From contig JAGVWE010000007.1 of assembly GCA_018304425.1 (NCBI GenBank), positions 19,853 to 83,852 of the forward strand: a stretch of DNA of 64,000 nt, read 5' to 3'. Within the stretch, counting starts at the first letter, position 1; each line of letters begins with the position of its first letter. The translations under genes and the position numbers were made by a program. This DNA comes from Candidatus Iainarchaeum sp. Lineage in GTDB: Archaea > Iainarchaeota > Iainarchaeia > Iainarchaeales > UBA10219. The notes beneath the pieces were generated by a model. The model saw only the letters and a program-made list of their open reading frames with translations, searched no databases and had not been told where the DNA came from. Below are positions 21,420 through 31,400 of this stretch, in pieces.

Positions 21420-22066
21420 ATGGCGAAACCAGGTGCATCGGCCGAAGACGGGGGCGGCAGCACTTCCACGGGCATCCAAGAATTGGCACCTTTCTGGGGG
21501 GCGGTTTCCCCAAGGGAGCCGTGGTCCTCGTGGCCGGTTCCTCGGGCAGCGGCAAGACCATTTTCTCGTTCAACTGGCTGTTCGACGGCGCCCGCAAGGG
21601 CGAGAACGGCGTCTACGTCACCTTCACCGAGCCCCTGTTCAAGTCCGTGAAAAACCTGGAAGTCATGGACTTCTACGACCGCAAGCTCATCGAAGACGAG
21701 ACCATCAAGATCCTGGACATCCGCGACCTCTACGCCGAGCAAGGCTTCGACGCCCAGCGCATCCTGGACACCGTGGAACGGCAGGTCAAGGAAACCAACG
21801 CCAAACGCCTCTGCATCGATTCCGTGACCGCGATCGCCTACAACCTGGACGACAAGGCGAAGACCCGGAAATTCATTTTCGTGGACTCGCTGTCCACGAT
21901 GCTGATTTACAACCGGCCGGACGTCTTCGCGCGGTTCATCCACAGCGTGCTCGTGAAAATCCGGCTGAACTCCATCAGCGGCCTGCTGTTGTTCATTGAA
22001 ACGCAGGCGGACCGGGAAGTCCGCGCCGAAATCGCACAGTTGTGCGACAAGGTCCTGCGGGTCTAG
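21420..22066 (+). pseudogene. RAD55/KaiC-like ATPase, frameshifted and internally deleted
   Basis: MAKP...STGIQEL (frame of 21420) continues in another frame as FLGGGFPKG...GSSGSGKT; two Walker-B-like segments (CIDSVT, FVDSLST) abut. Confidence 0.65.
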
Positions 22067-22072
22067 GGGCTT

Positions 22073-22465
22073 TCACCAGCCGTCTGTTTTGAGGTTTTTC
22101 ACGCGGTCGAAATGTTTGCGGTTGTTGGTGACCAAGATGGCCTCATGGCATACTGCGATGGCCGCAATCATGAGGTCCAGTACTTCGAGGCGGTTCCCCT
22201 TGCGGATGAATTCTGCGTCGAGTAGGGCGACCTGTTCGGCGGCATCAACTTCGAAGGGAAGCGGTTGTAGCGAGGCCAGGAATTTCCTCGCAAGGTCGAG
22301 GCTGGCAGGCGTGCCATACAGCCGCTCTCCAACCAGCACTTCGTATATGTTGATGCAGGTAGTGGCGATTTCCTTGTCCTGCTCCGGTAGTTGCCGTAAT
22401 TTTGCGGTCGCAGCCTCTTTTCCGCGAAGATAGGCGATGATGCAATCGGAGTCAAGGATTATCAT
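22073..22465 (-). CDS. vapC: VapC/PIN toxin
   Basis: IILDSD, DLMIAAIA, VTNNRKHF. Confidence 0.9.
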   Translation of the reverse strand: MIILDSDCIIAYLRGKEAATAKLRQLPEQDKEIATTCINIYEVLVGERLYGTPASLDLARKFLASLQPLPFEVDAAEQVALLDAEFIRKGNRLEVLDLMIAAIAVCHEAILVTNNRKHFDRVKNLKTDGW

Positions 22466-22706
22466 GCATTCTCGCCTGTCGTTTCCAGAATGATGCCGTC
22501 GAGTCTTTCCTCAGTCGCCTGTACAAGGCCAGCCGCTTTTCGGCTTCCTCATCGGTCATCGGGATGCTGCCGAAATACTTCATGAGGTCGGGTTGTTCCT
22601 TTTCCGCCAGCCGCTCGAGCAGGTCGCTGAAGCTCTCGCCTTCGTGCTTGGCCCTGATGAGCTTCTCATAGACCTTGCCCTTGATGGTAAGGGTTTTGAA
22701 GACCAT
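22452..22706 (-). CDS. vapB: VapB-family antitoxin
   Basis: KTLTIKGKVYEKL...ESFSDLLERL; overlaps toxin start. Confidence 0.85.
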   Translation of the reverse strand: MVFKTLTIKGKVYEKLIRAKHEGESFSDLLERLAEKEQPDLMKYFGSIPMTDEEAEKRLALYRRLRKDSTASFWKRQARMHDNP

Positions 22707-22708
22707 GC

Positions 22709-22728
22709 TATGTTTAAGGTTAAACATA
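22709..22728. promoter_or_regulatory. Putative antitoxin operator palindrome
   Basis: Perfect inverted repeat TATGTTTAA-GG-TTAAACATA directly upstream of the vapB ATG. Confidence 0.55.
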
Positions 22729-22840
22729 TATTTAATCCTTGCTTCCATCCTTTTAAGCAACAAACTATTTTTAAGGCAATTGTCGTAATATTGGTGTGTT
22801 CGGAGAGTAGATTAATATAGCCATAAAGCAATATAGCTAT

Positions 22841-23089
22841 ATGGCTACAACTACGTTGCGGGTGCAACTGCCGGAGGAAAAAGCCAGAAAGGTGCGGGAG
22901 CAAGCCATGAAACGCTTCGGTTATTCGAAAGGGGCCATCAGCAAGGCGCTCAATGTGGCCTTGGATGAATGGTTGGGGAAGGCGAAACCAGCCAAACCGC
23001 CTATCACGGCCAAGGACTTGTTAGGGCGGCTGAGTGGCGTAAAGGAGTCCTCCGTGGAACTCCAGCACAAGGCTCGTGACTATTGGTAG
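22841..23089 (+). CDS. Ribbon-helix-helix antitoxin
   Basis: TTLRVQL...GAISKALNVALDEW, C-terminal SVELQH; precedes PIN gene. Confidence 0.8.
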   Translation: MATTTLRVQLPEEKARKVREQAMKRFGYSKGAISKALNVALDEWLGKAKPAKPPITAKDLLGRLSGVKESSVELQHKARDYW

Positions 23090-23097
23090 GCTGTGCC

Positions 23098-23502
23098 ATG
23101 TATTTGCTGGACACCAACATTTTTTTGGAAATCCTCCTCGATGGCGCACGCGCCACCGAATGCCTGCGCCTGCTCTCCCTTTTGCAGGGCGAACGGCTGT
23201 CTGCGGTTGTTTCGAAGTTCGCGGTTTATTCGATTTGCCTGATTCTTTTCAGGAAAAAACAACCCGATCTGGCCCGGGATTTCCTGGCCTATCTGGATTC
23301 CCTTCCAACCCTGCAAATCCATGGGACCTCCCTTGAGGAGGATGCCGAAGCCTTCGCCAGCGCGGAGAAATTTGGCCTTGACTTTGACGACGGCCTGCAG
23401 TTTACGGTTGCCAAGCGCTTGAGCGTGGAAGCCATCGTCTCCTTTGACCGGGACTTCGACAAGACCCCCTTGAAGCGCCTGGAGCCAAGTCAAATCCTTT
23501 GA
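23098..23502 (+). CDS. vapC: PIN-domain toxin
   Basis: YLLDTNIFLE, LDFDDGLQ, SFDRDFD. Confidence 0.9.
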   Translation: MYLLDTNIFLEILLDGARATECLRLLSLLQGERLSAVVSKFAVYSICLILFRKKQPDLARDFLAYLDSLPTLQIHGTSLEEDAEAFASAEKFGLDFDDGLQFTVAKRLSVEAIVSFDRDFDKTPLKRLEPSQIL

Positions 23503-23516
23503 CGAGAACCGCTGTT

Positions 23517-23681
23517 TCACTCGGCTTCCGTTTCCTGTCGTCTGACCCGAAGGAAGATGCCCGCCGCAATCAGGGCCGCGAGCGCCATCGTGAGTTCGTC
23601 GTACTCGGGGATGACGTTGAGGGTGTTGCGGCTGCCGAAGGCGCTGGTCGTGGTTGGACGGGAAAACCGCTCGTTTCCCAT
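23517..23681 (-). repeat. Orphan PEF-CTERM tail copy C (54-aa ORF)
   Basis: MGNERFSRPTTTSAFGSRNTLNVIPEYDELTMALAALIAAGIFLRVRRQETEAE*; 40-bp core at 23596-23635. Confidence 0.85.
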
Positions 23682-24100
23682 ATCGTCAGTAAAACATTTG
23701 GCGGTGAAATATGACAGTCGAATATTCTGTTGAGCCCTGGTACGCGCTTGAAATGCCTGGCGTTCCCGGTCAACAGGGTTTCCCGGGCTTGGAGGGCAAT
23801 GGCCGCAATCATGCAGTCCTGTGGTTCGATGGGTTGGCCGGTTTGCCAGAGTCCTTGCTGGATTTCGCCTGCCTCGTTTGCGGCTTGGGCATCCAATGGC
23901 AGGGCAGGCAGGGAGGAAAAGAGTTCGCGGACGCGTTGCCTTTCTTCTTTTCCGGCGCGGTGGAGGCTTTGAATGACTTCAAACACGGTGATAGCCGTCG
24001 TCAGCAACGGTTCGCCTTTTCGCTTCAACTCCTCCGCCTTGGCGGCCGCACCCTTTTCTCCCCTGATAAGGTCAATGACGTAGCTGGTGTCAAGAATCAT
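23570..24100 (-). CDS. vapC: VapC/PIN toxin, cassette copy 1, C-terminus reads through into the tail repeat
   Basis: ILDTSYVIDL, DCMIAAIA, LLTGNARHF; no stop at the usual position. Confidence 0.8.
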   Translation of the reverse strand: MILDTSYVIDLIRGEKGAAAKAEELKRKGEPLLTTAITVFEVIQSLHRAGKEERQRVRELFSSLPALPLDAQAANEAGEIQQGLWQTGQPIEPQDCMIAAIALQARETLLTGNARHFKRVPGLNRIFDCHISPPNVLLTIWETSGFPVQPRPAPSAAATPSTSSPSTTNSRWRSRP

Positions 24101-24333
24101 GGACGGAAGCCTTCCATGAGGGCGCGACTCCGCGCCAGGCCGGTGGCTCTCGACGCTTGCACGGCTTCCTCCACCGTTGCCGTGGTCTTCTTGGACAGTA
24201 TGCCCGCGAATTTCGTCAAATCCGTTTTGTTGGTGAGCCTGCAAATCACTTGGCTGAAGCTCTCCCGCGCTTTTTTGCTGGAGGCCAGGCGCTTATAGGC
24301 GTCCACCGTAATCGAAATCGTTTTCGTTGCCAA
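24097..24333 (-). CDS. vapB: VapB-family antitoxin, cassette copy 1
   Basis: TTG start; TKTISITVDAYKRL...ESFSQVI. Confidence 0.85.
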   Translation of the reverse strand: MATKTISITVDAYKRLASSKKARESFSQVICRLTNKTDLTKFAGILSKKTTATVEEAVQASRATGLARSRALMEGFRP

Positions 24334-24340
24334 TCTCCCA

Positions 24341-24373
24341 CCTACACATACATACACATACGTGTATTTAAGG
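24341..24373. promoter_or_regulatory. vapBC promoter/operator, repeated at 26716-26748
   Basis: CCTACACATACATACACATACGTGTATTTAAGG identical in both cassettes; tandem ACATAC units plus TATA-like TTAAATA on the minus strand. Confidence 0.6.
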
Positions 24374-24409
24374 CTTTGGCTGGAAAAGTGGTCGCCCTCG
24401 TTTATGCCA

Positions 24410-24516
24410 TTAAACGGTTTTCCCGCGTTCCATGCGCCTAATCCATCCGAAGGCGAGCGCGGCCAGTAGTACGGTCAAGGCCAGCGTGTAGTCCTCGTAT
24501 TCTGGGTTCACCTCGG
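24410..24516 (-). repeat. Orphan PEF-CTERM tail copy D (degenerate)
   Basis: Translates EVNPEYEDYTLALTVLLAALAFGWIRRMERGKTV*; begins right after the AbiEii stop. Confidence 0.75.
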
Positions 24517-25296
24517 TTAATGCTTTTTCAGCCCATTTTTTTGAATCCGTTCTTCAATTTCTTTTTTCACTTGGGGAAAGGAAGGCAGCGGGCCGCCAAC
24601 CAGCCCACCCAAGTCCCGTTCCCAACTGCCTTTTTTTTCGTCCACTTTGGCCCAGAAACCGTCTGGCGTGAACCGGAGCCCGGCATGCGCCATTTTCCTG
24701 CTTATGAGCCCCGGTTCGGCGGGCACGCCTCTTCGTTTCAGCAGGTGCCAGAGGTCGTAGACGTCCCTGGCCTTGTTTCTTTCATGGATTGCCCTGATTT
24801 TTTCGGCAAGGATTTCTTTTTCGTCCATGGCAAACAGATTGAATGGCCGGATCTCCCGATAAATCGGGGCATACGGAAACGTTTGAACGGGCAGCAGCAC
24901 GCGTTCCCTCAAGCTGATGTTGACGGCAAGGGAGGTTAGGCTTTCCTTGCTGCCGTCGTAAAGCGGCCCCCTTGCCTGCACGTAAACGTTTGTGCTCCTT
25001 TCAAACGCTTCCACGGTTGCCTTCGCCTTTACGTCCAGCAAGCTGAAAAGGCCGGGTAACCGCGTAAAGAAATTTTTTGGCTTGAAGCCTTTTCCAGCCG
25101 TGAAGTCGAGGTCTTCGCTGAAACGGTCCAACTTGTACGCCTTGTATAGGCAGGTTCCGCCTTTAAAGACGAGCTTGCTCCCGAACTCCCGGTAAATGTT
25201 TATCAAGGCCAGGTCCTGCAGGTAATCCAATTCCGTGAGCCGGAGGCTGAGGCCCTTGAATTTTGCGACGGCCTGCAGTTCTTCACGCTTGAGCAT
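24517..25296 (-). CDS. AbiEii/AbiGii nucleotidyltransferase toxin (type IV TA)
   Basis: FKGGTCL, RFSEDLDF, AEKIRA, ARDVYD. Confidence 0.9.
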   Translation of the reverse strand: MLKREELQAVAKFKGLSLRLTELDYLQDLALINIYREFGSKLVFKGGTCLYKAYKLDRFSEDLDFTAGKGFKPKNFFTRLPGLFSLLDVKAKATVEAFERSTNVYVQARGPLYDGSKESLTSLAVNISLRERVLLPVQTFPYAPIYREIRPFNLFAMDEKEILAEKIRAIHERNKARDVYDLWHLLKRRGVPAEPGLISRKMAHAGLRFTPDGFWAKVDEKKGSWERDLGGLVGGPLPSFPQVKKEIEERIQKNGLKKH

Positions 25297-25870
25297 GCAG
25301 CGCCTCCCGCAATTTTTTGGCCCAGCCCCTCGCCTTTTTCGCGTGAAGCAAAAGCCTGTCCCTGTTGATTTTCCGCTTGTTGTTTTTTATGATGTCCACG
25401 GCCTCGGCCAAAGACATTTTCCTGGTCGCCAAGGCGTCCACGATTGCTTTTTCTTTCTCGGCCAAGAAGATTTCCCGGCCCTGGTAGGTCGTCCGCTGGA
25501 AGCCGGTGAAGGCGGTTTCCTTGATTTTGATGAATTCAATCCGGGCGTTCCCATAGGAAACGATTTTTTTCTTCCTCTTCCGGGTCGTGATTACATGGAT
25601 GGTGAACGGCAGTTGCTCCGTCAATTTATGGTAGTTTAACGCCGCCCAGCACGAGATATAACTTGGCCAGACGATCCATGACGCCACGAGGAATGAATCC
25701 GTTTCCAGCGTGTACTTGCCCTTCTCGATTTCGTGGAGGACGCCCGCCTTTTTCAGCCGGTGTGCGACGAGGTACGCGTAATCAATGCCTTTATGGAGCG
25801 TGTCGGCGAGGTCCCTGGCCGTAAAAACCGGGTACGGCTTTAATGCCTCCAGCTCCTTCTTTTTTATCAT
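25283..25870 (-). CDS. AbiEi-type antitoxin / regulator
   Basis: HTH N-terminus, PSYISCWAALNYH, EKAIVD. Confidence 0.85.
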   Translation of the reverse strand: MIKKKELEALKPYPVFTARDLADTLHKGIDYAYLVAHRLKKAGVLHEIEKGKYTLETDSFLVASWIVWPSYISCWAALNYHKLTEQLPFTIHVITTRKRKKKIVSYGNARIEFIKIKETAFTGFQRTTYQGREIFLAEKEKAIVDALATRKMSLAEAVDIIKNNKRKINRDRLLLHAKKARGWAKKLREALHAQA

Positions 25871-25898
25871 TCCACCAACCTTATCAAAACTGATATGA

Positions 25899-26474
25899 TT
25901 AGCCGCCCAACAATTTATAAGGCTTTTCGCTGGTGTTGCCGCCTAATCCCTGCAAACGCCATGGCCGCCAGGATAACGGCCAGCGCCATCGTGAGTTCGT
26001 CGTATTCGGGGATGACGTTGAGCGTGTTGTGGCTGCCGAAGGCGCTGGTCGTGGTTGGACGGGAAAACCGCTCGTTTCCCATATCGTCAGTAAAACATTT
26101 GGCGGTGAAATATGACAGTCGAATATTCTCTTGGCGTTCCTGGTCAACAGGATTTCACGGGCTTGAAGGGCAATGGCCGCAATCATGCAGTCTTGTGGTT
26201 CGATGGGTTGGCCGCTTTGCCAGAGCCCTTGCTGGATTTCGCCTGCCTCATTCGCGGCTTGGGCATCCAATGGCAGGGCGGGCAGCGAGGAAAAAAGTTC
26301 TTGGACGCGTTGTTTTTCTTCTTTTCGGGCACGGTGCAGGCTTTGAACTACTTCGAACACCGTGACGGCCGTCGTCAGCAACGGTTCGCCTTTCTTCTTC
26401 AATTCCTCGGCTTTGGTGACCGCACCCTTTTCCCCCCGAATCAGGTCAATGACATAGGTGGTGTCAAGAATCAT
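25899..26474 (-). CDS. vapC: VapC/PIN toxin, cassette copy 2 (27 nt shorter near its end; possibly inactive)
   Basis: Paralogue of 23570-24100; lacks the HFKRVPGLN segment; reads through the tail repeat. Confidence 0.7.
   Translation of the reverse strand: MILDTTYVIDLIRGEKGAVTKAEELKKKGEPLLTTAVTVFEVVQSLHRARKEEKQRVQELFSSLPALPLDAQAANEAGEIQQGLWQSGQPIEPQDCMIAAIALQAREILLTRNAKRIFDCHISPPNVLLTIWETSGFPVQPRPAPSAATTRSTSSPNTTNSRWRWPLSWRPWRLQGLGGNTSEKPYKLLGG
25915..26082 (-). repeat. Orphan PEF-CTERM tail copy B (55-aa ORF)
   Basis: MGNERFSRPTTTSAFGSHNTLNVIPEYDELTMALAVILAAMAFAGIRRQHQRKAL*; core at 25997-26036. Confidence 0.85.
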
Positions 26475-26707
26475 TGTTGGAGGCCTTCCATTAGGGCGCG
26501 ACTGCGTGCCAGGCCGGCAGCCCTTGACGCTTGCACGGCCTTTTCCATGGTGGCCGCGGTTTTCTTGGACAAGATGCCCGCGAATTTCGTCAAATCCGTT
26601 TTGTTGGTGAGCCTGCAAATGACTTGGCTGAAGCTTTCCCGTTCCATTTTACTAGAAGCCAGGCGCTTGTAGGCGTCCACCGTAATCGAAATGGTTTTCG
26701 TCGCCAA
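26471..26707 (-). CDS. vapB: VapB-family antitoxin, cassette copy 2
   Basis: Near-identical to 24097-24333. Confidence 0.85.
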   Translation of the reverse strand: MATKTISITVDAYKRLASSKMERESFSQVICRLTNKTDLTKFAGILSKKTAATMEKAVQASRAAGLARSRALMEGLQQ

Positions 26708-26798
26708 AGCTATCACCTACACATACATACACATACGTGTATTTAAGGATTTGGTTGAAACCGCCTTCTCTGCCCAGTCTGCCCGGTTTGCCCAGGCC

Positions 26799-27044
26799 TC
26801 ACCGGTCTTTCCCGCGTTCCCTGCGCCGGATGTGCGCGAACGCCATCGCCACCAGGGCCACGGCTAGCAGCAGGGTTAGGTCATCGTACTCGGGGATGAC
26901 GTTGAGGGTGTTGGGGCTGCAGGCGCTCGTCGTGGTGTAGAGGTCGTCGGCCACCACGCGGATGTAATAGTCGCCGCTGGTGATGTCGCAGTTCCAGGCG
27001 TACACGCAGTTGATGTCTTGAGGTCGCAGACGGGTGGAGACCAT
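26799..27044 (-). repeat. Orphan PEF-CTERM tail copy A (81-aa ORF, diverged paralogue of the surface-protein C-terminus)
   Basis: CVYAWNCDITSGDYYIRVVADD...ACSPNTLNVIPEYDDLTLLL...RRRERGKDR aligns with the last ~70 aa of 28464-32276; core at 26881-26920. Confidence 0.9.
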
Positions 27045-28420
27045 CAGCCGAATGTTTCTTCAAGATCCTTCAAGTCATAGAGGTCGGCGTTTTTTTCGTC
27101 GATCTTTTTTTCCTTGAATGATTTCGCGAATAGGCAATACCGTTCCGTTCTGTGCTCTTTGAACCAGCTTACTTTTTCCGCTTTTTGTTTGAGTTTTCGC
27201 AGCAGGCTCTCGGCATCGACTTTTTCTTTCCACTTGCATTCGCAGAAGAGTGCGCTTTTTTTTGCCTTGCTAAGGCCCACGATGTCTATTTCTTCGCCTT
27301 TATCCCACCAGCTGCCGATGAGGTAGTCCTTGAAGGCGGCATTTTTGGACAGCCGGTCTCGGCACACCTCTTCGAACCCTTTGCCGATGAAGGCGTTCAG
27401 TTCGGGCTCTATTTTCTCGTTTAAGAGGTTTTTCTGCTTGCGTTGTTCTACGTAATCCATGTTTTCAAACACGAAGCGGAACCAGAAGCGGAAGAAAGGG
27501 TCTTTCAGTTTGTAGATGCCTTTCCTCGATTTTTCCTTTCGCTCAGTAATGGGCACGGCACGCTCGACGAGGTCAAGGTCAATCAATACGCCAAGGTATT
27601 TGTTTACGGTGCCTTTTTCCAGGCCCGTGTCGTTGACGATGCGCCCGATGCCGGTGTTGCCCTTTGCGATGGCGGCCACGATGGAAAAATAGTTTCTCGG
27701 CTCGTCCAGTTCCTCCCGCAGCACGAACATCGGGTCCCGGAACAGGAAGGACTGCTTTTCCAGGATTTTTTCCCCGATATTGGAAACCAGCGTTTTCGTG
27801 TAATCAAATTCAAGCAGGTAGGCAGGGGTGCCACCGAGCACCGCGTAGTAACTGATTTGTTTTTTGATGTCCATCGTTTTCGGGAAGAAATGGCGGGCTT
27901 CGCTGAAATCAAGGGGGTCAAGCTTCATTTGATGTGTTCGCCTCCCGTAGAGGGGACTCTTATAGCCGAGGAGTTTTTCCATCATGGAGACGCTGGAGCC
28001 GCATAAGACGAAGAGGCAGGGCATGTGTTGGAGTGCCTTATCCCAGTGGTCTTGCAGAATGGAGGGCAGCGAGGGGTTAGCTTGTACGAAGTAAGGGAAC
28101 TCGTCCAGGAATACGGCGAACGGTTTTTGCTTCAGTTTTTCGGCGAAGTAGGAGAAAACGGAGTCGAAGTTGCCAAAGGGCCTTGAATTCAGTTGTTCAT
28201 CGTTGAAAAACTCGGCGCAGGCCCTGCTGATATGCTCCAATTGCTTGTGTTCGGATTCCTGCCGGCCCAGCAGGTAAACAGCGGGATGATTTTTTGTGAA
28301 TTCCCTTAGTAACTCGGTTTTGCCGATTCTACGTCTGCCGTATACTACGGCTAGCACTGGCTTTTTTGCCGACCAAAGCGTTTCAAGCAACTGTAGTTCC
28401 TTCACCCGGTTGTAAAACAT
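27044..28420 (-). CDS. Archaeal ATPase (DUF234-type) with C-terminal PD-(D/E)XK-like domain
   Basis: FYNRVKEL, YGRRRIGKT, FLDEFPY, GGTPAYL, DPFFRFWF, EIDIV...ECKW. Confidence 0.9.
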   Translation of the reverse strand: MFYNRVKELQLLETLWSAKKPVLAVVYGRRRIGKTELLREFTKNHPAVYLLGRQESEHKQLEHISRACAEFFNDEQLNSRPFGNFDSVFSYFAEKLKQKPFAVFLDEFPYFVQANPSLPSILQDHWDKALQHMPCLFVLCGSSVSMMEKLLGYKSPLYGRRTHQMKLDPLDFSEARHFFPKTMDIKKQISYYAVLGGTPAYLLEFDYTKTLVSNIGEKILEKQSFLFRDPMFVLREELDEPRNYFSIVAAIAKGNTGIGRIVNDTGLEKGTVNKYLGVLIDLDLVERAVPITERKEKSRKGIYKLKDPFFRFWFRFVFENMDYVEQRKQKNLLNEKIEPELNAFIGKGFEEVCRDRLSKNAAFKDYLIGSWWDKGEEIDIVGLSKAKKSALFCECKWKEKVDAESLLRKLKQKAEKVSWFKEHRTERYCLFAKSFKEKKIDEKNADLYDLKDLEETFG

Positions 28421-28463
28421 AGTAAACTCTAAAGTATACTACTTATGAGAATACTATTTAAAC

Positions 28464-31400
28464 CTATGGTTTGGCCGCCCGTCGCACGCGCAGGAAGATG
28501 CCTGCCGCGATCAGGGCCGCGAGCGCCATCGTGATTTCGTCGTACTCGGGGATGACGTTGAGGGTGTTGGGGCTGCAGGCGTTGGTTTTGGTGAACCCGT
28601 CGTCGGCTTCGACGCGGAGGTAGTAGTTGCCTATCGTTACGTCGCAGGTCCAGGAATAGAGGCAGCTGGTGTCATCCGGGTTGCAGGCCGCCGTGGTCTG
28701 GCTGATGTTGCCGATGATGAGGTTGGTGTTGTTGGCGCAGGTGCTGGCGTCCGTGCCGTAATAAATGCTGAAGTTGACGTCGTCGAGGTCGGCATCGTCG
28801 GCTGTCCATGTAATGTCGTAGGGGGTTGGAACGGTGCAGCTCTGCCCGCTGCCCGTGGGCGCCACGCTGCTCACGGCCGGCGCATCGTTGGCGCTGATGA
28901 GGACGCTGCCGGACTGCTGCTTGATTTGCTTCTTGTTGAGGACACTGTTCCAGATGAAGACTGAGTCTAAGTCTATATGTGCAAAACCAAGATTATCTAA
29001 TCTTTGCCCAAATATGATTTTTTGGTCTTCATCACTCATCGTGGTATTACCCGAACTGGCCCTAAGAACGCCATTAACATACAATCTTCCGCCAACAGTA
29101 GTATTCGCCGTCCCTGCGACATGTATCCAGGTATTTTGAGGGAGTGTATCTACTGCAGTCAACAAGTTAGCGGTGCCCGACGCACCATATACTAAAACAA
29201 TATCCTGAGGGAAAGCATCAGCAGCGGTTCTAAAATCGAAAGGTGCAGGAAAGTTATTATTCGTTGATCCATTTTTTTCGACCATGGGATTATATACTGC
29301 AGATTGTGCTCTTACCCAATATGCTACAGTAAATGCCGTGCTAAGACTAGAAGTCAAATCTGCAATCTCGACTTTGTCATCTACCCCATCAAATTTCAAG
29401 TCAGTGTATTCAGCCGGTGTCATAGGGGTGTTCGTGTCCCATCTCGGGCCGGAAAGCAGTTCCCCATGCTTGTTGCCAGACGTTGCATCCCAGGCCCGGA
29501 TGGCGTTGCTGTCGTCTTTGTTGAAGTTCCACGCGCTGACCAGCCCGCTTTCCGTGCCCATTAGTTGTTTGGGCGTGCTGTCTTGTCCAATGTTCTTGGC
29601 TTTGTCGTAGACGTTGACGTCGATGAAGTAGTTTTGGTCTGCGAGGCCAGCGGGGTTCCAGTCGTAGAAGCATAGCACGTTCTGGTCGAAGAAGTAACGG
29701 GGTTCGCTGGCGTAACTGGTTCCGCCGGGCGCACTGCAGTTGGCGTCGTTGGTGGGGTTGCGGGCGAGTTGGGCGAGGTTGACGTCGGCAGCGAATTTGC
29801 CTGACGTGTTGAAGTCGGCCGCGTAGAGGCTCGCGTAGAGGCTTGCATAGAGTTCGTCTTCTTCGCGGAAGTTGCCACTAGCTGGGAGGGGAGCGTAGGA
29901 AGTGTCTCTCACCGTGAACTTGACGAGGATGTTGCCGTCCGTTTTCTGGTAGTGCGAGCCGCCTTCCGGCCAAAGCAGGTTGGCGTCCGGTCCGTTCGTG
30001 GTATGCGTGCCACAGTAGTTGTTGCAGCGGTTTATGTAGCCGCTTTCTTGGTGGATGAAACAGGTGTTGCCGCCCGAGCATTGCCCGGAAGCAGTGCAGG
30101 CCGGGTTGCAGCCCCATTGGTTGATGAAGTCCGTGGGCCAGGCGGACGTGATGTTGGCGGTGGTGGCCGCAATGTTGAAGTCGATGTCAGCATAGTAGGT
30201 GGCTACGCCTAATGTGCCGGTACTGATATTGCAGGGCGCGAACAGGAGGTTGAAGTCGTACTCGGTGCCGCCCGTGTAGCTGCCGGCACAGGTGATGTTC
30301 GCGGTGTTGTCGGGGGCGCTCGAATAGGTGCGTGAACAGCCGGTGGGTAGCAGGGGCGCGCTGACGAGGGCAAACGTTTTGTAGGGGATGTCGGGGGAGT
30401 CAATTAGGGGGTCGTTGCAGGTGTAACCGACTTGTTGGGGCGCCGGTACGAGGGGCGTGGCATGGTTGCCGCGTATGGGGGTGAGGAGCGATGTCGCATA
30501 GTGGGGCTCGATTTTGAAGCCTAGGTTGCCGCTGACATTGGGCATGACTTTGAGTCTCACGAGGTATTGGTGGGTGTTGGTGTCCGTGGTTGTCAGGTTG
30601 AAGGTGAAGTTGGAGTCGGGACTGCAGGCCATGTTGTTGCCGTCTCCGGCGCGGCCCACGAGGTCGCTGGGGCAGGTGGCGGGCGCGTTGGCGCCGTTGA
30701 GGTCAATGCTCGCGTAGAGGACGGCCGCGTTCCAGTCATCAATCCAGTCCATGGGGTACATGCGCCACGCGCCTCCCGAGGTCCCGCCGTCGGCTGAAAG
30801 GTTGAGGTCTTCGGCCTGGATGTCGGTTGTTCTGGGATGGTTTGCCCAGCGGCAGGGTTTGACGGTGATTCTTCCAGCGTACGGGGTGCCGCCGGCCAAA
30901 GTAGTAGTGGCGTTGCCGTCGTCTCCAACGTAATTGGTGTCGGTGAGCGTCCAGTGGGGGTTGCGGAGGCCGGCCGTGTTGCCCGTGGTTCCAAACCAGC
31001 CGTTGGGGCTGAGGGGGCTGTCAATGAAGTCAACGATTTCCCAGCGGGGAAGGTTGAGGTCGATGGGCTCCCACAGTGCCCCCCCGAGTATGGGGTCTGA
31101 GAAGCATTTGTTGCCCGCGAAGGCGGTGGAATTGTTTGGTACGTAGCTAATGGGTTTGCCTTGTCTTACGCCTGCGTCCACGTTGTGGTCGCCGTACGGC
31201 GAATCCCATTTTCCGACGGCGCCCGCCGAATAGCGCAAGCCAAAGTTGTTGTCGATGCTGCGGTGGATGTTGCTCATGATGTTGTAGTCGATGACGTAAT
31301 TGGTGTCCAGGATGAAGGCCGTGTCGGGCGTGCAGTAGGGGAGTTCCCCGTTGGTGTCGATTTCGCCGTTATTGGCGTTTCCGGCGTACACCATGCCTCC

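Follow-up and report, generated by a model that had tools for sequence, protein, structure and literature searches.

An array of putatively displaced gene ends and toxin-antitoxin modules downstream of a surface-protein gene of Candidatus Iainarchaeum sp.

Why does the 3' end of a surface-protein gene recur four times downstream of the intact gene, in the same orientation and with small toxin-antitoxin (TA), abortive-infection (Abi) or ATPase modules between the copies? This question is raised by a window of 64,000 nucleotides (nt) of Candidatus Iainarchaeum sp., the window being the whole stretch of DNA analysed (contig C7, positions 19853-83852). It belongs to a 1.48-Mb genome in 7 contigs, with 58% G+C and 92.55% complete. 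The order on the minus strand is gene G, a DUF234 ATPase gene, tail A, vapBC, tail B, abiEi/abiEii, tail D, a second vapBC and tail C, where the tails are the recurring gene ends. The first-pass annotation of this DNA, made from the sequence alone, had proposed an integrase-less cassette array that recombines in the sorting-signal codons of G. We favour, at about an even chance, a different answer: the array would consist of displaced 3' gene ends, coding until recently, which accumulated through homologous recombination and whose likeness this process maintained together with short-patch gene conversion. With the same middling confidence, and by analogy, the array would not be a dedicated cassette-capture machine and would be akin to the arrays that C-terminal displacement forms in rhs and cdiA.

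Core repeat and anatomy of the tails

A core of 40 nt was found four times on the minus strand, in G and in tails A, B and C (Table 1), with 0, 1, 3 and 1 mismatches to the gene copy, respectively. No match appeared in 100 shuffles (0.00 expected by chance), and the first-pass annotation was right about these copies and about the degenerate state of tail D, which matches 17/40 positions over the core and 13/18 over the part encoding P-E-Y-D. A six-frame regular expression run on the genome gave four matches, all inside the array locus (4/4). The protein of G, used as query of the genome, recovered nothing other than itself and tails A, C and B; a profile built from the five tails and run against the 1.48-Mb genome recovered these five tails alone, so that all of them lie in the array locus. 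The gene order given above was also read correctly by the first-pass annotation, as confirmed by open reading frames (ORFs) and Pfam matches and by an independent metagenome contig with the same order. In the alignment of the five tails, P, E, Y and RR are invariant, with a hydrophobic stretch between them.

The extent of homology to G varies from tail to tail. Nucleotide identity between G and tail A is 77/120 before the core, 39/40 within it and 27/60 after it, with an exact block of 41 nt. The homology of tail A to the protein of G covers 72 amino acid residues, beyond the core, and the tail opens right at the stop of the ATPase gene, partway through the last beta-rich domain. It retains the structural residues C, Y, W, G, YY and RV. 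Furthermore, the upstream part of tail A is about equidistant from G (20/35 residues) and from P0001 (23/37), a 1801-residue homologue, which was the one full-length relative found (78% identity) when the last 141 residues were compared with 5.8 billion proteins. P0001 carries the tail type of G and C, and shows that modules have been duplicated within this protein family. The first-pass annotation had counted remnants of truncated full-length paralogues as evidence against its own proposal; tail A is plainly the truncated end of a diverged full-length homologue, which goes against that proposal.

Tails B and C are identical over the 36 nt before the core (36/36), differ at one position in the 18 nt after it (17/18) and then fall to 19/42, and their homology to G and tail A begins about 20 nt (about 7 codons) before the core. 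Past the core, tail C follows G (Table 1) through a transmembrane (TM) peptide that is the same but for I/L, up to an RVRR cluster, after which the two differ. Tails A and D have an ERGK ending in common (15/21), with only 25/42 in the TM part. These shuffled flanks had been described in the first-pass annotation and stand as described; its view of the core as the common crossover point does not, because homology to G begins at about -120 nt (A), at about -20 (B/C) and inside the core (D), and on the downstream side the breaks are at 0, +17 and about +60 nt relative to the core. An upstream homology that varies in this way, from 72 residues (A) to about 7 codons (B/C) and none (D), supports displaced gene ends. 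So do the core as an island of DNA identity between G and tail A, and the presence of the native tail type on G and C and also on P0001.

Putative TATA-like boxes, recognised from the sequence only, lie just after tails G, A, B and D, as the first-pass annotation had read them. All the tails are open frames with start codons, the start of A overlaps the stop of the ATPase gene, and gene callers predicted the A frame on 14 contigs and the C frame on 9+5 contigs; the tails might on these grounds be expressed as small tail-anchored peptides working with the adjacent modules, for example the A frame coupled to the ATPase. We consider this very improbable, since the tails have no signal peptide and no family match over cut-off, frames B and C lie under an extended vapC frame in this assembly, and B and C consist of hairpin and spacer DNA in their upstream part. 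The tails are probably without a function of their own.

Coding signatures, hybrid tails and the vapBC units

Synonymous changes between G and tail A occupy 1/8 sites in the core and about 27 of about 45 in the flanks (Fisher p=0.02), and upstream of the core the proportions of synonymous (pS) and non-synonymous (pN) changes are 0.60 and 0.28. Between G and tail C, the 13 core codons show no synonymous change in 8 sites (Fisher p=0.06), and the 20 codons past the core show seven synonymous changes (18.2 sites) and three non-synonymous ones (41.8 sites). The core is conserved at the DNA level beyond protein need, and has been homogenised. The G+C content at third codon positions (GC3) of the tail frames is 0.88 in A, 0.84 in C, 0.77 in B and 0.73 in D, with 0.85 in the end of G itself; native genes range between 0.81 and 0.87 and the cargo genes between 0.61 and 0.73. 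Because of the synonymous excess and of a GC3 like that of native genes, at least tails A and C can be said to have been coding until recently; they would be ends of real genes that were displaced not long ago and stem from a lineage with such a codon bias.

Variants of the tails were found in other assemblies. The search with tail A retained three proteins of four candidates: P0003, which is tail A's own frame and was called on 14 contigs; P0004 (one contig, 3656 nt), which is tail A with a patch of B/C type at the 5' edge of the core; and P0005 (one contig, 1496 nt), which joins the upstream half of A to the downstream half of G. A search for shorter proteins retained five of 589 candidates, namely P0005 and four forms of tail C, among them P0007 with a codon insertion and P0009 with a B-type residue and one TM change; it gave no partial gene with a foreign tail. 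The tail profile, compared with 1.84 billion representatives, matched four clusters, three of them mini-ORFs, among which P0010 is a new orphan tail of 43 residues with its own flanks. P0005 would be the expected product of a loop-out circle or of an unequal crossover between G and tail A. P0004 is better explained by short-patch conversion, because two switches within about 35 nt are needed. Reassortment of half-sites outside this assembly, which the first-pass annotation had predicted, appears in the hybrids P0005 and P0004; the gain, loss or reordering of cassettes that it also expected was not seen, in tests that are weak.

The modules themselves differ in how they meet the tails. The stops of the ATPase gene and of abiEii directly abut the next tail, and a hairpin follows vapC only, in both copies, with a 13-bp stem and a fold z of -3.2 in L016, the independent metagenome contig. 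The pair of a PF02697 VapB and a PF01850 PIN protein occurs twice, in operon order, and the abiEi call, which is under the family cut-off, is supported by its position directly upstream of abiEii. No further copies of the cargo that could mark cassette borders were found elsewhere in the genome by blastn. When the two vapBC units were compared on their undeleted copies in L016, the preceding tails showed 56-70% identity, followed by about 50 unalignable nt past the tail stops; the part that comprises the TATA-like box, vapB and vapC showed 78-94% per 50-nt window (about 87% overall); and the part from the vapC stop through hairpin, spacer and core to 17 nt past the core showed 147/150 (p=1.6e-5). 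The upstream half shared by tails B and C is a part of this larger duplicated block. The vapB pair shows 23 synonymous changes in 56.3 sites and 10 non-synonymous ones in 174.7 (pS 0.41, pN 0.06), and the vapC pair 30 in 90.2 and 14 in 293.8 (pS 0.33, pN 0.05). The copies diverged under purifying selection, and this divergence fits an origin in separate, diverged lineages and not a recent duplication.

Both vapC copies of the window lack the stop codon and the left hairpin arm through in-frame deletions of 54 nt (vapC-1) and 27 nt (vapC-2), which have one end point in common (window 23727 and 26129/26130; about 100-130 and 2520-2575 in L016). Owing to the 54-nt deletion, vapC-1 runs on out of frame through tail B. 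L016 has the undeleted form, as do a contig of sequencing run X6 and a loose end of run X5; in addition, a 72-residue tail-C frame was called on five contigs, and the joint at 26129/26130 in the run contigs is a 54-letter insertion. Two other joints in the run contigs, whose sides measure only 21-22 letters, were regarded as spurious or foreign, and a link from 22253 to 24072 between two PIN genes was judged foreign. The arm of the vapC hairpin occurs in the genome at the two vapC ends and at one unrelated place only. An action of an IS200/IS605-type TnpA on this hairpin was also considered, and was rejected for this reason and because the end hairpins of that element are unrelated in sequence.

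The hybrids P0004, P0005 and P0009, the 147/150 tract and the common end point of the vapC deletions argue for recombination among the tails. They also bear on a reading of the tails as inert relics, in which tandem paralogues were cut by unrelated insertions and deletions and the core stayed alike only through the motif, which is under the strongest constraint. That reading would account for a truncation point that differs with each cargo type, for tail A as a clear domain fragment, for the module duplication in P0001 and for the same order in L016. It is decidedly unlikely in our judgement, since the synonymous sites of the core are homogenised, the variants exist, the 147/150 tract lies within units that are about 87% alike, and the differences between G and C past the core are almost only synonymous, so that C has not been long decaying in place.

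The repeated cores call for a check of the assembly itself, the more so as the short-read contigs of four runs break at them. L016 comes from an independent JGI metagenome (4965 nt) and shows the same order from the end of the gene to the start of tail C, at 98.9-99.9% identity, with no mismatch and two gaps in 2523 nt and two mismatches in 2391 nt against the window. The arrangement is not an assembly accident, because L016 has the same order. Two independent assemblies concur along about 4.9 kb, the short core has unique flanks to its left and right at each junction, and the A frame occurs on 14 contigs; an artefact of assembly across the 40-nt cores is hardly credible.

Genome context, recombinases and the sorting signal

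Table 1. Features of the array locus, in window coordinates
Feature	Position	Strand	Basis
Gene G, 1270-aa secreted/surface protein ending in motif, TM and basic tail	28464..32276	-	ORF; Laminin_G_3
Core copy of intact gene G, encoding S-P-N-T-L-N-V-I-P-E-Y-D	28537..28576	-	pattern search
Cargo 1, ATPase_2 + DUF234 ATPase, 458 aa	27044..28420	-	100.7 and 92.2 bits; GC3 0.65
Tail A, 81-aa open frame, truncated end of diverged homologue	26799..27044	-	54% identity to G aa 1196-1267
Core copy of tail A	26881..26920	-	
Cargo 2, vapB-1 antitoxin	26471..26716	-	PF02697, 55.5 bits
Cargo 2, vapC-1 (PIN)	25899..26474	-	PIN, 59 bits
Hairpin remnant, second, after vapC-1	about 26086-26129	-	comparison with undeleted L016
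Tail B, 55-aa frame	25915..26082	-	ORF list and nucleotide alignment
Core copy of tail B	25997..26036	-	
Cargo 3, abiEi-like antitoxin/regulator	25283..25870	-	AbiEi_4 18.6 bits, under cut-off 25
Cargo 3, abiEii nucleotidyltransferase toxin	24517..25296	-	PF08843 (AbiEii), 111 bits
Tail D, degenerate, starts at P-E-Y, 9 nt past abiEii stop	24410..24511	-	64.8 bits to tail profile
Cargo 4, vapB-2	24097..24357	-	PF02697, 51 bits
Cargo 4, vapC-2 (PIN)	23570..24100	-	PIN, 70 bits
Hairpin remnant (loop and right arm, 13-bp stem) after vapC-2	23685..23727	-	comparison with undeleted L016
Tail C, last tail, native-type TM segment	23517..23681	-	50/60 nt to G past core
Core copy of tail C	23596..23635	-	

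The array lies in a low-G+C island (22000-35500), with 48-57% G+C against 60-65% beside it, which also supports the displaced-end reading. The island contains two further vapBC-like pairs and three AAA ATPases. A convergent PIN gene terminates 15 nt past tail C, and the two further pairs, of PIN/VapB type at 22073-22763 (minus strand) and 22841-23502 (plus strand), form the island edge that faces the DNA ligase gene. The genome encodes an ATP-dependent DNA ligase, an intron-bearing tRNA and an archaeosortase-family protein, and shows TATA-like boxes, features that suggest an archaeon with a small genome. Genome comparisons were made with order-level relatives, whose genomes have 0.5-1.5 Mb. 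According to shared sequence words, and to the habitat labels of the run records, the array locus is present in at least eight groundwater or soil studies.

No tyrosine or serine recombinase was found in the window with the PF00589 profile or the resolvase search, as the first-pass annotation had said of it, and no serine recombinase was found in the genome. PF00589 matched three places in the genome, none of them in the window: an intact XerA-like gene at C1:397115-397603 (150.8 bits) and, at the starts of contigs C1 and C7, the two halves of a single integrase gene. This gene is split at the C1/C7 junction by an IS200/IS605-type tnpA, which has end hairpins of its own, and lies about 43 kb from tail C, with housekeeping genes between. 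The two contig starts (C1:1-1405 and C7:1-598) are contiguous, with an overlap of about 100 nt.

A tRNA-Pro(TGG) gene is located directly upstream of gene G (32385-32457). A second one (34059-34181; Rfam tRNA, 51.6 bits) is intron-bearing, with an insert of about 50 nt at the anticodon loop, and a 42-nt identical fragment of the tRNA-Pro 3' end is found at 35604-35645. These pieces bracket two AAA_14+DUF4143 ATPase genes (32567-33772 and 34221-35480) that are 31% identical, and they have the classical look of the attachment (att) scars left by integrated elements of which a single ATPase gene persists. Palindrome-rich short repeats occur at 33881-34135, both within the insert of the second tRNA-Pro and just upstream of this tRNA gene, with copies of 76-95% identity on contigs C1, C3, C4 and C5.

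Serial site-specific integration at the core would explain several of these features. Integrative elements, small or formerly larger, would have been directed to the core by a tyrosine recombinase that worked in trans or has disappeared; each would have brought a replacement anchor, as elements aimed at tRNA genes or icd do, and then have decayed to its addictive TA modules. This amounts to the proposal of the first-pass annotation with the integrase missing. G and tail A share the 41-nt exact block between unlike flanks; motif, TM and basic cluster are kept in all five tails; the same kind of arm stands at each side of both vapBC units; the att-scar pattern of tRNA-Pro(TGG) lies in the same island; and the genome has both a XerA-like recombinase and an integrase broken by an IS200-type tnpA. 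We nevertheless think this history unlikely. The window is without a recombinase and the broken integrase is distant, the borders of homology are not the same between tails, and the 120 nt of gene-body homology in tail A are needless for an att arm. Furthermore, the supposed own arms of the two vapBC elements are only 56-70% alike before their unalignable stretch, the core pattern is absent from viral contigs, and no excision joint was found in the contigs of the four runs, where the power was low.

It is likewise doubtful, more so than not by a wide measure, that the core, together with hairpin and spacer in the case of vapBC, is a true recombination site through which TA and defence cassettes enter and leave the 3' end of G, each with a replacement anchor. 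The catalyst would then be a recombinase encoded elsewhere, such as the XerA-like one, or a specialised form of host recombination, and the ATPases flanked by tRNA-Pro would be part of the same traffic. If this were true, the locus would represent a new kind of cassette system, an archaeal analogue of integrons without an integrase and with its site in sorting-signal codons. A narrow literature search, which is weak evidence of absence, did not find sorting-signal codons used as a recombination site.

The protein of G has a signal-like segment at the N-terminus, and Laminin_G_3 (residues 963-1119) is its sole Pfam match over cut-off. In the region of this domain (about 28950-29430, residues about 950-1110) GC3 is 0.25-0.45, against 0.72-0.88 in the rest of the gene, which suggests that the domain was laterally acquired or swapped. 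A protein search of the 1.48-Mb genome gave no paralogue elsewhere. Searched against 40 order-level genomes, the whole protein gave weak matches in 6/40, all within residues 759-1129 and none on the tail, and the five-tail profile matched 2/150 order-level genomes at 17.7 bits, taken as noise. The core pattern, kept degenerate at third codon positions, was found in no genome contig, in no viral contig and in one metagenome contig (L016), with the proviso that it fixes Leu as CTN and TTR-coded copies would escape.

The first-pass annotation had called the end of G a PEF-CTERM anchor. The tripartite end holds, as the tails show the short motif, the TM helix and the basic cluster at the extreme C-terminus; a family match does not. 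TIGR03024 (PEF-CTERM) gave no match to the tails at E<=1, the best being PGF-CTERM with 12.3 bits (cut-off 24.5), and none in a six-frame search of the genome at E<=10, a search of unproven sensitivity in which 0/14 control genomes were over cut-off either. Nor are there several substrates, as in PEF-CTERM systems, since one full-length protein alone carries this tail in the genome. The genome searches that the first-pass annotation had proposed did find, beside the XerA-like gene and the broken integrase, an archaeosortase-like protein (L001:1372-2283), which passes TIGR04178 (30.9 bits, cut-off 23) and scores 23.2 bits against ArtC (cut-off 100) and 25.3 bits against PF09721 (26.6 with in-frame neighbours; cut-off 25.7). 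A protein of 1543 residues on contig C3, with its end at C3:308705-308818, terminates in L-P-E-E-P, a TM segment and basic residues, and may be a second substrate of archaeosortase type; its end did not recur as orphan copies in the genome.

Displacement of gene ends and comparison with known systems

Under the displaced-end reading, donor DNA from diverged relatives would have carried a homologous gene end with its adjoining TA, Abi or ATPase module, either in linear form or as a circle that had looped out from between two tails. It would have recombined with the resident gene via the conserved core or the gene body, through the ordinary homologous recombination of the host. At each event the gene would keep a complete anchor and the older end would move downstream, where addictive TA modules would oppose later deletion and so persist. 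Short-patch conversion and unequal crossover between tails would then yield the identical core and the hybrids seen in other assemblies.

Several observations weigh against this account. The protein searches found no full-length gene with a tail of A, B, D or P0010 type, and the donors are hypothetical. The strain behind L016, the sole independent contig, is nearly identical and does not differ in the order, and neither L016 nor the contigs of four runs, both weak tests, showed any gain, loss, swap or reordering of cassettes. The Logan contigs of runs X5, X6, X9 and X10 end at the cores and contain no core-to-core joint, a result of low power that bears neither way. P0005 stands on a single contig and may be chimeric, misassembled over the 41-nt exact repeat; the core-to-core cycle from G to A measures 1656 nt, and a low-coverage de Bruijn assembly could yield P0005. 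In addition, a 41-nt exact block with unrelated flanks also resembles the att sites of a site-specific integrase, and the tRNA-Pro fragments a few kb away show that integrase-type insertion occurred in the island. The account lacks an explanation for the TA or defence module that follows every displaced end, and the close conservation of the stretch from hairpin to core behind vapC lies outside it.

If the displaced-end reading is true, about 40 nt of conserved, motif-coding sequence would suffice as a landing pad for TA and defence modules while the gene stays unbroken. The locus is in any case a place to measure recombination between short coding repeats in an uncultured archaeon with a small genome.

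Among known systems, elements of the phage 21 and e14 type carry a replacement end of icd. Phage 21, e14 and their relatives insert in icd (PMC12803456). The array resembles such tRNA and icd integrative elements in that the 3' end of the target forms direct repeats round the cargo, the host gene stays intact and tRNA-Pro scars lie nearby; it differs in that its modules are without an integrase, measure 0.9-1.7 kb, contain one or two genes and have non-uniform borders.

Integron arrays consist of tandem modules of one or two genes, rich in TA pairs in chromosomal arrays, with a short site recurring between them. The topology of module, repeat and module and the many TA pairs are also found here. 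However, the array has no intI and no imperfect palindrome of attC type at every module, the hairpin following vapBC only, and its modules have their own TATA-like box and a recurring site that is the coding sequence of a neighbouring gene. The integron-like part of the first-pass annotation thus survives in the repeats, the mosaic flanks, the lack of a nearby integrase and the variants exchanged at or near the core; an integrase, attC-like sites at every module and a uniform crossover were not found.

Neisseria pilS and Borrelia vls are silent partial-gene cassettes for gene conversion. An expressed gene with promoterless partial copies nearby is common to these systems and to the array, where P0004 indicates short-patch conversion. 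In the array, however, the varied part is an anchor that is buried or cleaved, with no apparent benefit of variation, and unrelated genes stand between the copies.

The closest parallel is with rhs and cdiA. For rhs, one study puts forward homologous recombination through circular intermediates, together with arrays of displaced tips (PMC2935791), and for cdiA, another describes orphan cdiA-CT fragments that keep varying upstream sequence and are bounded by a VENN-coding motif (PMC3150448). The likeness extends to an intact gene followed by 3' fragments in the same orientation, with a small gene module after each; to a boundary that encodes a motif (VENN or DPxGL there, N-T-L-N-V-I-P-E-Y here) and divergence past it; to fragments that retain variable upstream homology, here about 120 nt in A, about 20 nt in B/C and none in D; and to homologous recombination, possibly via circles, proposed in both. 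The array differs in being found in an archaeon, in a gene that encodes a Laminin_G_3 surface protein and not a toxin, in a displaced piece that is a membrane anchor of roughly 25 residues instead of a toxin domain, and in having vapBC, abiE and an ATPase gene between the fragments where cognate immunity genes would stand. By this analogy, the array appears to work like the rhs/cdiA family without being a member of it, and C-terminal displacement, if this is what the array records, would not be confined to bacterial polymorphic-toxin genes and would also shape a surface gene of an archaeon.

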